Under the pieces are notes generated by a model, which saw only the letters and a list, made by a program, of their open reading frames with translations, did no database searches and was not told the origin of the DNA. 64,000 nucleotides of DNA. It comes from an uncultured Bacillales bacterium (GTDB lineage Bacteria; Bacillota_I; Bacilli_A; RFN20; CAG-826). The translations under genes and the position numbers were made by a program. Where the stretch lies: the NCBI GenBank assembly GCA_903845135.1, contig CAIMWL010000025.1, positions 528-64,527 on the forward strand, in the 5' to 3' direction. Shown here piece after piece: positions 33,593-36,203 of this stretch (position 1 is its first letter; every line of letters starts with the position of its first letter).

Positions 33593-33621
33593 AAAACCAT
33601 TGCCAAAAGCAATGGTTTTTT
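33593..33621. terminator. Bidirectional rho-independent terminator between eno and the convergent operon
   Basis: AACCATTGC caaaa GCAATGGTT, flanked by an A-run on one side and a T-run on the other. Confidence 0.8.
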
Positions 33622-34306
33622 AAATATGAAGCCAGCGTTGAAGATAATCGATAAATTTCTTTCGAAGATAAGTTAATAAAGCCGTTAAAGTTACCATAGA
33701 AGATATCCCGGCAACCATCGAGGGTATCGTGATGTCAAAATCAAGAAACCAATAGATTAGCGAAAATTGGAAGAAACCAAGCAGGGTTGTGACCAGCATT
33801 TGAAAGAGGATAATATCGGTTTTTCTTTTGACAGTGGTGATGATAAAAAATAATAAATTGCTTAATGAAATCATAATAGGTACTAGATATTGTAATGGCC
33901 AAGCATTCAACGTTTGGGTGGCGACAAAGGCAATGATGATCGTGCCAATACTCACACTAAAAAGTTGCCATAATATGATGTAACCAATCCCTTGGCGATT
34001 ATAAATGGTTTTATAGATTAACACCCAAACATAAAAAACGATAAAGGTCATCATAAAGGTTGTGCCAAGTTCATTGGCAATCAATGCTAGATCAATCATT
34101 AAAGTGAGTAATAATGCAAGTAACAAAGGGAACGCAAAAAATGCATGAATCTGACTTGCCGTTTGTTTTTCAATCTTTTCATAATTGGGGGTCGGATATA
34201 AAGATTCTTTATCTTTTGATTCAACTTTTTGAATAAAGCCACCACAAATAGGGCAATTCGTTAAGCTTTCCTCAACTTGAACACGGCATCGCTTACACGT
34301 TGACAT
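33620..34306 (-). CDS. Polytopic (about 6 TM) membrane protein with N-terminal cytoplasmic zinc ribbon
   Basis: MSTCKRCRVQVEESLTNCPICGG (CxxC-x12-CxxC), then six hydrophobic segments. ATG 34306 is preferred: GGAGGA lies 7 nt upstream and the ATG overlaps the upstream TAA by 1 nt. Confidence 0.6.
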   Translation of the reverse strand: MSTCKRCRVQVEESLTNCPICGGFIQKVESKDKESLYPTPNYEKIEKQTASQIHAFFAFPLLLALLLTLMIDLALIANELGTTFMMTFIVFYVWVLIYKTIYNRQGIGYIILWQLFSVSIGTIIIAFVATQTLNAWPLQYLVPIMISLSNLLFFIITTVKRKTDIILFQMLVTTLLGFFQFSLIYWFLDFDITIPSMVAGISSMVTLTALLTYLRKKFIDYLQRWLHI

Positions 34307-35592
34307 TAATCTACTTCCTCCCAACGATTACCGGAAACTTTGACTTTAAGTTTAAGTTGGTCGACAAGATATTGAACAAAAAATCCAATAAAAGTTCGAT
34401 CATCAATAATCCGAGAGAAAGATATTACCAGTTCATCCTTGTATGAAGCGATGCCTAAATTAATTGGCATTATCGGTGTTGAGCAAATCATAAATTCAAA
34501 ATGTTTTAAATAGGTTTGCGTGGTGGCAGGCATGTCAATTTTTCCCAAGTTAGACATAGTCAGACTTAGGGCGGGTTCACCAACACGATTAAATACACTT
34601 TTCACAATCCATCGTTTAATGAATAAAGGCACAAATCTCAATAGTAACATTCTTTCTGCTTGCATATTTGCTCTAATTTGCGGTGCCAGAACTTCAATTT
34701 TTTGTCCTGCTTTAAGTTGTAAATTTACTTCTTGGAGGATATCTTGAAAAGTTGATTCTGGTGAAAATAATTTCCCAATATTAATAGTCATCACAAAATT
34801 TTTCATGGTTTTCGAAGGCAAGTACTTTCGCATATCTACGGGAATCGATAAAATGATGGGTTTACGTTTTTTGGGATTTTCGCTTTCTTGTTTCTTGATT
34901 AAACCCAAAATGAGAATACTCGCAAAAAGACCGGTGACGGTGGTTTGAAATTGTCTTGCCATGGCGACACATTCGCTAGTGGTTAAATGCAGATGGGTAA
35001 GATAATGGCCATTGTGATCAAAATAGGTTCCTTTAAGGTGGTAGGCCTTATTAGTTGCTAACCATATGCTCTTACCTTTTGTAACTTGAGTGGCAAAACT
35101 ATCTTCAAGTTCGGCGTGAGTAACTTGATCATCAGCATCAAACATCATCCCTTCTGCATCAACTGGGTAACCTTTTTCTTTTAAATAAGATAAAGTAAGG
35201 GTTTTTAAAAATTCCATGCCTCCACGACCATCTGAAATCGCATGAAAAACTTCAATGGATATGCGTTGCCGATGAAAATAAACTTCAATCAAATGTTTTG
35301 AACTATCAAATGGGCGACTATTGGAACCAAACATATTCGGTTCGGGTAAAACTTTAAAAGGTCGAGATTGATTCTCCAAATAATTCCAAAACAGACCTCT
35401 TTGTAATTTGGTATTAAAGTGCGGAAAGCGAATTAGAGTTTTTTCTGCAGCAATTTGTAAAATAACTGGATCCACCAATTCATTAAGCATCACACTCATG
35501 CGAAAATAGGACGATCTTCTCGTTTCAGTGATAATTGGAAAAAGTTTCCCCGCATTATCAATTTTAAACCACTGGGTTGTACGATTTTTCAT
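34306..35592 (-). CDS. Condensation-domain/WS-DGAT-like acyltransferase (HxxxDG)
   Basis: 428 aa. EVFHAISDGRGGMEFLKTL carries the H-x3-D-G active-site motif of the C-domain / alcohol-acyltransferase superfamily. No TM segments. ATGA overlap with rdgB. Confidence 0.6.
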   Translation of the reverse strand: MKNRTTQWFKIDNAGKLFPIITETRRSSYFRMSVMLNELVDPVILQIAAEKTLIRFPHFNTKLQRGLFWNYLENQSRPFKVLPEPNMFGSNSRPFDSSKHLIEVYFHRQRISIEVFHAISDGRGGMEFLKTLTLSYLKEKGYPVDAEGMMFDADDQVTHAELEDSFATQVTKGKSIWLATNKAYHLKGTYFDHNGHYLTHLHLTTSECVAMARQFQTTVTGLFASILILGLIKKQESENPKKRKPIILSIPVDMRKYLPSKTMKNFVMTINIGKLFSPESTFQDILQEVNLQLKAGQKIEVLAPQIRANMQAERMLLLRFVPLFIKRWIVKSVFNRVGEPALSLTMSNLGKIDMPATTQTYLKHFEFMICSTPIMPINLGIASYKDELVISFSRIIDDRTFIGFFVQYLVDQLKLKVKVSGNRWEEVD

Positions 35593-36203
35593 CGGGCTTT
35601 AATTTTGGTAATTAAGCGTTTATCTAATAAGCATTGCAATAACTTTGCCGCCGCTCTGCCCCGGTGAGAAATTGTATTTTTTTCTTCAATGCTCGCTTGC
35701 GAAAAGGGTTTCATTAATTCATCACTGAAAAAAATTGGATCATAGCCAAAGCCGTTGGGATGGTGATCAATGTCACGCGTGATTTTGCCAATGGTTGTGC
35801 CGACAAAGAAACGCATTTCTTTGTGAGGATATAAAATTACAATCGCACTGGTAAACTGAGCTTTTCGATTTTTATGAACGTGCATTAATCTTAAAATTTC
35901 CTTATTCTTTTCTTCGTAAGTTTTGTCCTCCAACCATCGAGAAGAATAAACTCCTGGAAAACCTTGAAGGGCATCAATTTGCAGACCGGAGTCATCTGCG
36001 ATGACGGTTTTATTGACATGTTGGCTAACTGCTTTTGCTTTTAATAAGGCATTTTCTAAAAATGTCCTACCTGTTTCTTTTGGCTTTAATTTTAGTTTAA
36101 GGTCATCTAAGGTCAAAAATGTAACGGTGTAGTCCTTAAAGAAAGTTCTGATTTCTTGAACTTTAGCTTGGTTATTCGTCGCGAGCACAATTTCGTAATT
36201 CAT
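35589..36203 (-). CDS. rdgB: Non-canonical purine NTP pyrophosphatase (RdgB/HAM1)
   Basis: Motifs LATNNQAKVQEI, ADDSGLQIDALQGFPGVYSSRW, FGYDPIF and SHRGRA. Confidence 0.92.
   Translation of the reverse strand: MNYEIVLATNNQAKVQEIRTFFKDYTVTFLTLDDLKLKLKPKETGRTFLENALLKAKAVSQHVNKTVIADDSGLQIDALQGFPGVYSSRWLEDKTYEEKNKEILRLMHVHKNRKAQFTSAIVILYPHKEMRFFVGTTIGKITRDIDHHPNGFGYDPIFFSDELMKPFSQASIEEKNTISHRGRAAAKLLQCLLDKRLITKIKAR

Follow-up and report, generated by a model that had tools for sequence, protein, structure and literature searches.

A conserved gene pair encoding a putative condensation-fold acyltransferase and a DUF6320 membrane protein, with a possible role in membrane-lipid acylation

The subject of this study is a three-gene operon on the minus strand of a 64,000-nucleotide (nt) stretch of DNA, referred to here as the window, from contig CAIMWL010000025.1 of an uncultured Bacillales bacterium (GenBank assembly GCA_903845135.1), and in particular the last two genes of that operon, which encode a putative acyltransferase and a zinc-ribbon membrane protein of the Pfam family DUF6320 (Table 1). 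A preliminary description of the window, made from the sequence alone, had proposed that the three genes are chained, and the open reading frames (ORFs) and the sequence agree with it. The TGA stop codon of rdgB and the ATG of the acyltransferase gene share ATGA (35592-35589), the stop codon of the acyltransferase gene and the start of the DUF6320 gene share TAATG, and the GGAGGA motif that had been noticed within the upstream gene ends 9 nt 5' of the DUF6320 ATG at 34306. The longest ORF of the DUF6320 gene opens at a TTG at 34324, but we prefer the ATG because it places the first cysteine as in the rest of the family, which begins M-x-x-C and has its first cysteine at residue 3-4 in 69 of 75 homologs. 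The first gene is identified as rdgB by its matches to Ham1p_like (PF01725; 3.2e-57, 193.9 bits) and to TIGR00042 (185.6 bits; cut-off 145.35). The operon is real and ordinary-looking, and it holds an unstudied two-gene module.

Table 1. Features of the operon and its flanks in the window
Feature	Position	Strand	Basis or remark
rdgB (XTP/dITP diphosphatase)	35589-36203	minus	First gene of the local operon; outside the conserved module
Acyltransferase gene, 428 amino acids, putative catalytic subunit	34306-35592	minus	ORF and predicted fold
DUF6320 membrane subunit, 228 amino acids	33620-34306	minus	PF19845 match
FHAISDGRGG, acyltransferase residues 116-125, H-x3-D-G-x-G motif	35218-35247	minus	
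Zinc ribbon C4-x2-C7-x10-C18-x2-C21 of the DUF6320 protein, cytoplasmic, proposed docking element	34244-34297	minus	
Translational coupling site: GGAGGA (34316-34321), 9-nt spacer, TAATG (34304-34308)	34304-34321	minus	Sequence
Intrinsic terminator closing the operon, 13-bp stem then T run	33592-33620	minus	
Candidate extended -10 box TGGTAAAAT, 7 nt 5' of the rdgB ATG	36211-36219	minus	Sequence reading

We scanned one genome per species for acyltransferase relatives, which yielded over 593 loci, and surveyed the genomic neighborhoods of the best 80 of these, all from different genomes, using a custom hidden Markov model (HMM) for DUF6320. The hosts among the titled records are nearly all Bacillota-type organisms (Clostridia, Bacilli, Acholeplasmatales and Izemoplasmatales). 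In 71 of the 80 loci the next gene downstream, on the same strand, encodes a DUF6320 protein, and one iteration of the HMM raised this number to 76, a result that bears out the earlier suggestion of a dedicated membrane partner. One of the four exceptions stops at a contig end (L052) and another is a second paralog whose genome also encodes a complete pair at a different locus (L030), while L061 and L072 are unexplained. The two genes are at most 20 nt apart in 70 of 75 loci, a tighter coupling than chance would give, and they overlap in 24. Twelve DUF6320 matches in further genomes were taken independently from whole-genome searches, and the acyltransferase is directly upstream of 11 of them; the twelfth (locus L085; genome G139, 2500-3594) is a relic that has lost both the acyltransferase and the ribbon. 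This relic sits in the same xerC-rlmH-pepT...rluA context as the intact loci of related genomes. A third conserved neighbor (glycosyltransferase, carrier protein, ABC transporter) was sought, but no other family recurs beyond 6 of the 80 loci, and rdgB is found upstream of the pair in 5 only, those of the closest genomes (L001-L005). The conserved unit is therefore the acyltransferase and DUF6320, and rdgB is merely a local neighbor: the operon drawn in the preliminary description holds locally through the ATGA overlap, but its first gene does not belong to the module.

The co-occurrence is accompanied by natural fusions. Acyltransferase-DUF6320 fusion proteins are present in at least 5 clusters (50% identity). 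They arose at least 3 times: a phylogeny of the acyltransferase domain requires four changes to account for them, and well-supported branches force no fewer than three of these. In four of the five fusion lineages the ribbon is missing and the acyltransferase stands in its place, while fusion P0314 has the order acyltransferase-ribbon-transmembrane (TM) domain. From these architectures it follows that the acyltransferase and the ribbon should share the cytoplasmic side with the N-terminal end of the TM bundle, and the fusions and the conservation pattern make the ribbon the obvious candidate for the element on which the acyltransferase docks.

The predicted fold and the motif of the acyltransferase place it in the coenzyme A (CoA)-dependent acyltransferase/condensation-fold superfamily. 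Its AlphaFold2 (AF2) model, built with a 24-sequence alignment (predicted local distance difference test, pLDDT, 83.6; predicted template modeling score, pTM, 0.86), gave 253 Foldseek matches in the PDB at E<=1e-3, all with the two-lobed condensation/chloramphenicol acetyltransferase (CAT) fold and with a top probability of 1.00. The best matches are condensation (C) domains of nonribosomal peptide synthetases (NRPSs), led by 8rz6 (3.2e-17); PapA5 is among them (1q9j; E 1.4e-16, TM-score 0.58-0.64), and others include the trichothecene acetyltransferase TRI3 (3fp0), a mannosylerythritol-lipid acyltransferase and AzeD, which has the highest TM-score (8s6l, 0.68). These matches agree with the condensation/PapA5-type acyltransferase that had been proposed from the FHAISDGRGG motif. 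H117, D121, G122 and G124 of that motif are invariant among 24 relatives of 30-88% identity, as are P251, R255, N265 and F266 of a PVxxR...NF block and N348 and G350 of an SNLG motif. The protein is basic (isoelectric point, pI, 9.5) and, as had been expected, soluble: it has neither a signal peptide nor a TM segment, and its highest 19-residue Kyte-Doolittle hydropathy (KD19) is 1.56, below TM grade.

Within this superfamily the enzyme is assigned to none of the families AATase, PapA5, Condensation or WS/DGAT, since every threshold is missed. The match to AATase (PF07247) reaches 20.8 bits against a threshold of 22 and covers only model positions 286-376 of 500, about 90 residues; PapA_C (PF16911) reaches 16.2 bits against 30 and the PapA5 model NF006787 reaches 14.5 bits against 396, while PF00668, the NRPS condensation domain, and the WS/DGAT model TIGR02946 do not match the window protein at all. 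The 24 relatives fare alike, with weak Pfam matches to AATase in 8 (best 2.8e-6), PapA_C in 5 and Condensation in 2, and a TIGR02946 match in one of 24 (7.5e-5). NCBIfam has no family for the window protein, the 24 relatives or the DUF6320 protein, and neither Pfam nor NCBIfam offers a model dedicated to the acyltransferase family. The fold and the HxxxDG motif are thus shared with NRPS C domains and WS/DGAT enzymes, but searches of the PDB with the single sequence and with the 24-sequence profile returned no significant match, there is no WS/DGAT-level score, and adenylation and NRPS carrier domains are missing from the whole genome of the window. The PADLOC models of anti-phage defence match neither the acyltransferase nor the DUF6320 protein. 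Clustered at 50% identity, the family comprises 2387 clusters at E<=1e-3 and 702 clusters at E<=1e-30. Three homologs (P0322, P0276 and P0300) carry N-terminal, low-complexity extensions of 80-240 residues that are rich in Lys, Glu and Asn and have no Pfam match.

The ribbon membrane protein, whose family the preliminary description had left to be looked up, is a full-length member of DUF6320 (PF19845; 4.4e-17, 63 bits against a threshold of 29.9, model positions 2-186 of 186), and the Pfam entry records no function. Six TM helices are seen both in the hydropathy profile and in the AF2 model (pLDDT 87.1), in which a small beta ribbon is followed by six long helices; a Foldseek search of the PDB with this model gave no match below E=1 (best E 1.3). 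The ribbon and the helix number are as had been described, and only the spacing is corrected, with ten and not twelve residues between the two CxxC pairs. The zinc ribbon is present in all 75 of 75 free-standing DUF6320 partners. Across 83 DUF6320 sequences the invariant residues are the four cysteines and P143, with W136 nearly so; a YP motif that follows the ribbon is conserved as well, as are Trp/Ser positions where TM2 and TM6 reach the outer face, and the family alignment holds no conserved charged residue within the TM helices. A basic-aromatic C-terminal tail, [KR][KR][FL][HF]x, is found in 81 of the 83. The family-mean number of Lys and Arg residues is 8.7 in the N-terminus, 0.5, 1.4, 0.3, 2.5 and 0.9 in the successive loops and 4.4 in the C-terminal tail, a clear positive-inside pattern from which an N-in/C-in topology is predicted. 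Most of the conserved features (ribbon, YP motif and tail) are then cytoplasmic.

A further type of fusion concerns an esterase. About 1 in 8 of the close acyltransferase homologs carries an N-terminal Abhydrolase_3 domain (Pfam, about 1e-45), in which Say1_Mug180 is only a secondary match (1e-12 to 1e-16). Most members retain intact HGGG and GESAGG motifs, which are degenerate in P0226. The tree implies at least 2 origins of the esterase fusions, some of which occur in Clostridia, and the fused proteins are still followed by DUF6320 (L040, L067). The presence of an Abhydrolase_3 domain therefore ties the pair to ester chemistry, in which an ester would be formed and hydrolyzed on the same substrate.

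The genome in which the pair lies limits what its substrates may be. The window's assembly (G000) is 1.03 Mb in size and 94% complete. A penicillin-binding protein (PBP) transpeptidase domain is missing from it and from 25 of the 35 DUF6320-positive genomes found in a distribution sample of about 300. In that sample the pair occurs in 35 of 299 genomes, in 3 of about 27 of the window's own family and in none of 14 model genomes, and its frequency is 10 of 79 (13%) in walled and 25 of 221 (11%) in wall-less genomes. An enrichment of the pair in wall-less genomes was considered and rejected on these last figures. Because the pair is equally frequent with or without a wall and the window's genome lacks a PBP, the acceptor should not be peptidoglycan or another wall polymer. 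Both the window's genome and that of Acholeplasma laidlawii have one acyl carrier protein (ACP) as well as FabF, and neither has an AMP-binding gene of the acyl-CoA or acyl-ACP synthetase type. Without such a ligase the donor should be acyl-ACP, if the acyl chain is long, or a short acyl-CoA such as acetyl-CoA, and the basic pI of the acyltransferase may suit an acidic ACP or a membrane surface. The earlier remark that no NRPS, polyketide synthase (PKS) or carrier-protein gene is nearby, and that the enzyme is free-standing, extends to the entire assembly: its sole PP-binding match is the ACP of type II fatty acid synthesis (FASII), on another contig, and no NRPS or PKS carrier protein was found. 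The genome, with its ACP and FabF and without PBP or AMP-binding ligase, fits a wall-less, Mollicute-like freshwater member of the Bacilli, and it uses the standard genetic code, a 2418-amino-acid ORF being open under table 11.

A. laidlawii PG-8A carries the pair as ACL_0358 (ABX80980.1), which UniProt names 'Alcohol acetyltransferase' (A9NF50), and the adjacent DUF6320 product ABX80981.1 (A9NF51); the gene upstream encodes a Mrp/ParA-type ATPase and not rdgB. ACL_0358 is annotated at 339 amino acids in PG-8A, truncated at its N-terminus, while other strains have 424 amino acids with a TTG start. The PG-8A frame (L082, 1587-2858) likewise opens at a TTG 85 codons earlier, which restores all 424 amino acids, including a conserved N-terminal DNAAKIFP motif, so that the start site in the PG-8A record is probably mis-annotated. 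Our literature search found no paper on DUF6320, ACL_0358 or its partner and none relevant to an acylated-glucolipid enzyme.

Some features around the operon concern its expression and its neighbors. On the 5' side of rdgB there is a tRNA-Gly(UCC) gene (36259-36332), then a weak hairpin and a run of ten T residues (T10), and then TGGTAAAAT, which has no -35 element and was not listed by a promoter consensus scan. Inspection of the region 36203-36262 revealed no Shine-Dalgarno sequence before rdgB, and with TGGTAAAAT this suggests that the operon mRNA is likely leaderless or near-leaderless. In the window's lineage the pair would ride on the rdgB transcript via translational coupling. At 29559-32202 on the plus strand, 1.4 kb away, there is a second pair of an acyltransferase and a membrane protein: a 409-amino-acid PlsC-type acyltransferase (PF01553, 4e-13) with a C-terminal CxxC...CxxC ribbon of its own, whose gene overlaps by 47 nt that of a 486-amino-acid polytopic membrane protein without a Pfam family. 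The minus strand at 36725-38394 carries two genes with a 4-nt overlap (37582-37585), one for a TraX-family membrane protein (PF05857, 3e-26) and the other for a CAAX/Rce1-like membrane protease (PF02517, 1e-14); in the closest relatives (L001) the two are still adjacent.

We propose, with moderate confidence, that the pair forms a two-subunit, membrane-docked O-acyltransferase that acts on a membrane lipid. The catalytic subunit would be cytoplasmic and His117 of the HxxxDG motif would be its general base, the role that the histidine of this motif has in CAT, NRPS C domains, PapA5 and WS/DGAT. The acyl group would move from a thioester donor, in the window's organism and A. laidlawii probably acyl-ACP or a short acyl-CoA, to a hydroxyl of the acceptor, an amine being less likely. 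The DUF6320 protein would be a non-catalytic subunit whose cytoplasmic ribbon and basic-aromatic tail tether the enzyme to the cytoplasmic face of the membrane, and it would probably also present the membrane-embedded acceptor or take up the product. We favor docking over catalysis for it because its invariant residues are four cysteines and a proline and its TM helices lack a conserved charge. The acceptor may be an endogenous membrane lipid, most plausibly a glycolipid head group or a lyso or hydroxylated lipid, and where an esterase is fused it would turn the ester over on the same substrate, either in deacylation/re-acylation remodeling or as the eraser of a reversible mark.

Several observations weigh against this proposal. 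Our literature search found no experiment on any member of the family, and within the 80-locus survey neither a glycosyltransferase nor a lipid-synthesis gene is linked to the pair. Its patchy, accessory distribution is as compatible with detoxification as with a conditional modification of lipids. The conserved Trp and Pro residues at the outer face of DUF6320 (W82-like, W136, P143 and W194-like) hint at a role past anchoring, such as translocation of the product. The window's genome is 94% complete, so that the absence of PBP and ligase from it is not absolute, although both absences recur in the complete genome of A. laidlawii.

The explanation that comes nearest to the proposed lipid acyltransferase is a system of detoxification or quality control like that of yeast, where Atf2 acetylates membrane sterols and Say1 deacetylates them. 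Here acetyl-CoA would be used to acetylate stray or exogenous hydrophobic alcohols (sterol-like compounds, terpenols, fatty alcohols), DUF6320 would only localize the enzyme and the fused esterase would remove the mark. AATase is indeed the commonest Pfam match of the family (8 of 24 members), the fused esterase belongs to the Say1 clan, the only CoA donors available are short-chain, and the accessory distribution and the lack of linked biosynthetic genes would be expected of such a system. The AATase matches are weak, however, and that of the window protein is below threshold over a stretch of 90 residues; the esterase is primarily a generic Abhydrolase_3, and yeast Atf1/Atf2 have no DUF6320-type partner. 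A membrane subunit that is obligate, co-evolving and repeatedly fused exceeds what localization needs, and the pair has been retained in a reduced genome of 1.03 Mb; we regard this account as rather unlikely. The pair may also resemble the mycobacterial PapA5/PapA3 enzymes and their MmpL partners. PapA5 and PapA3 are free-standing, two-lobed HxxxD enzymes; docked to a membrane protein, they form esters on the hydroxyls of membrane lipids or glycolipids. If synthesis were coupled to export as in PapA5-MmpL7, DUF6320 would be a flippase- or scramblase-like translocator to which the docked enzyme hands over its acylated product. The PapA5 structure is among the best fold matches and PapA_C/PapA5 recurs as a weak sequence match; TM2, TM3-4 and TM6 have conserved Trp and Pro residues at their outer ends; and a DUF6320 fold that has no known relative leaves room for a new type of transporter. 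On the other hand, the sequence scores are far under the PapA_C and PapA5 cut-offs, the window's genome has no PKS or carrier-bound donor, and MmpL is a resistance-nodulation-division (RND) transporter while the partner here is a 228-amino-acid, six-TM zinc-ribbon protein. Its TM bundle of only about 175 residues has no conserved charged or polar intramembrane residue, and there is no ATPase or energy-coupling partner, so that a translocator seems to us improbable. The closest functional parallels to the pair would nevertheless be the PapA-type lipid acyltransferases, with the membrane proteins on which they dock, and the Atf2/Say1 couple.

A chemistry other than O-acylation would require either the formation of an amide, for instance by N-acylation of a lipoprotein or aminolipid, or a reaction such as dehydration or epimerization as in some C-domain-like enzymes. 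The fold family has members with epimerization, heterocyclization and dehydratase activities, with AzeD (TM-score 0.68) among the matches to our model, and the lipoproteins of A. laidlawii have been reported to be N-acylated without an Lnt homolog. The N-terminus of a lipoprotein is extracellular, though, and the enzyme, which lacks both a signal peptide and TM segments, would share the cytoplasmic side with the ribbon; on this topology lipoprotein N-acylation was rejected. The genome has no NRPS or NRPS carrier, and the esterase fusions indicate ester chemistry, which makes a non-ester reaction very improbable. We give hardly any credence to the possibility that rdgB, the acyltransferase and DUF6320 work as one three-gene system. 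The ATGA overlap would speak for it, as would the recurrence of this gene order in the five closest genomes, but rdgB is not in the neighborhood of the other 75 loci, its place is taken by the Mrp/ParA-type ATPase in A. laidlawii, and RdgB is a housekeeping cleaner of the nucleotide pool. As a functional partner rdgB was rejected, being contradicted by the survey of the 80 loci.

Returning to the membrane-docked O-acyltransferase, its most specific form would connect it to the acylated glucolipids of A. laidlawii, monoacyl-monoglucosyldiacylglycerol (monoacyl-MGlcDAG) and monoacyl-diglucosyldiacylglycerol (monoacyl-DGlcDAG), a link that the preliminary description had offered as speculation. 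The pair would then be the acyltransferase that makes these lipids and, more generally, a new class of O-acyltransferase for membrane-lipid head groups: the condensation-fold enzyme would use acyl-ACP, the membrane subunit of novel fold would present the glycolipid acceptor to it, and the esterase-fused forms would carry out a deacylation/re-acylation of membrane lipids resembling the Lands cycle. We consider this form doubtful. The choice of a glucolipid as the acceptor is speculative, and the family extends far beyond Acholeplasma, to Clostridia and other Bacilli.

As to the pair as such, which occurs in hundreds of species of Bacillota, the neighbors are conserved, the His and Asp of the motif are conserved and no contrary published function was found. 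HxxxD acyltransferases are well known, and here is a branch of 2387 clusters for which we found neither a family model nor a publication, with an obligate six-TM zinc-ribbon partner whose fold has no solved relative. The pairing with DUF6320, the topology, the ribbon and tail motifs and the repeated fusions are new in that they are not described in the sources searched. The fusions to DUF6320 and to the esterase offer a ready hypothesis for a bacterial module of lipid acylation and deacylation. Since the pair persists in wall-less genomes of 1 Mb, in which the membrane is the whole envelope, it probably sets a property of the membrane lipids. A. laidlawii is culturable and its lipids are among the best characterized of any bacterium, so that the function of the pair is directly testable there, and with it the question of which enzyme acylates the glucolipids of this organism can be addressed.

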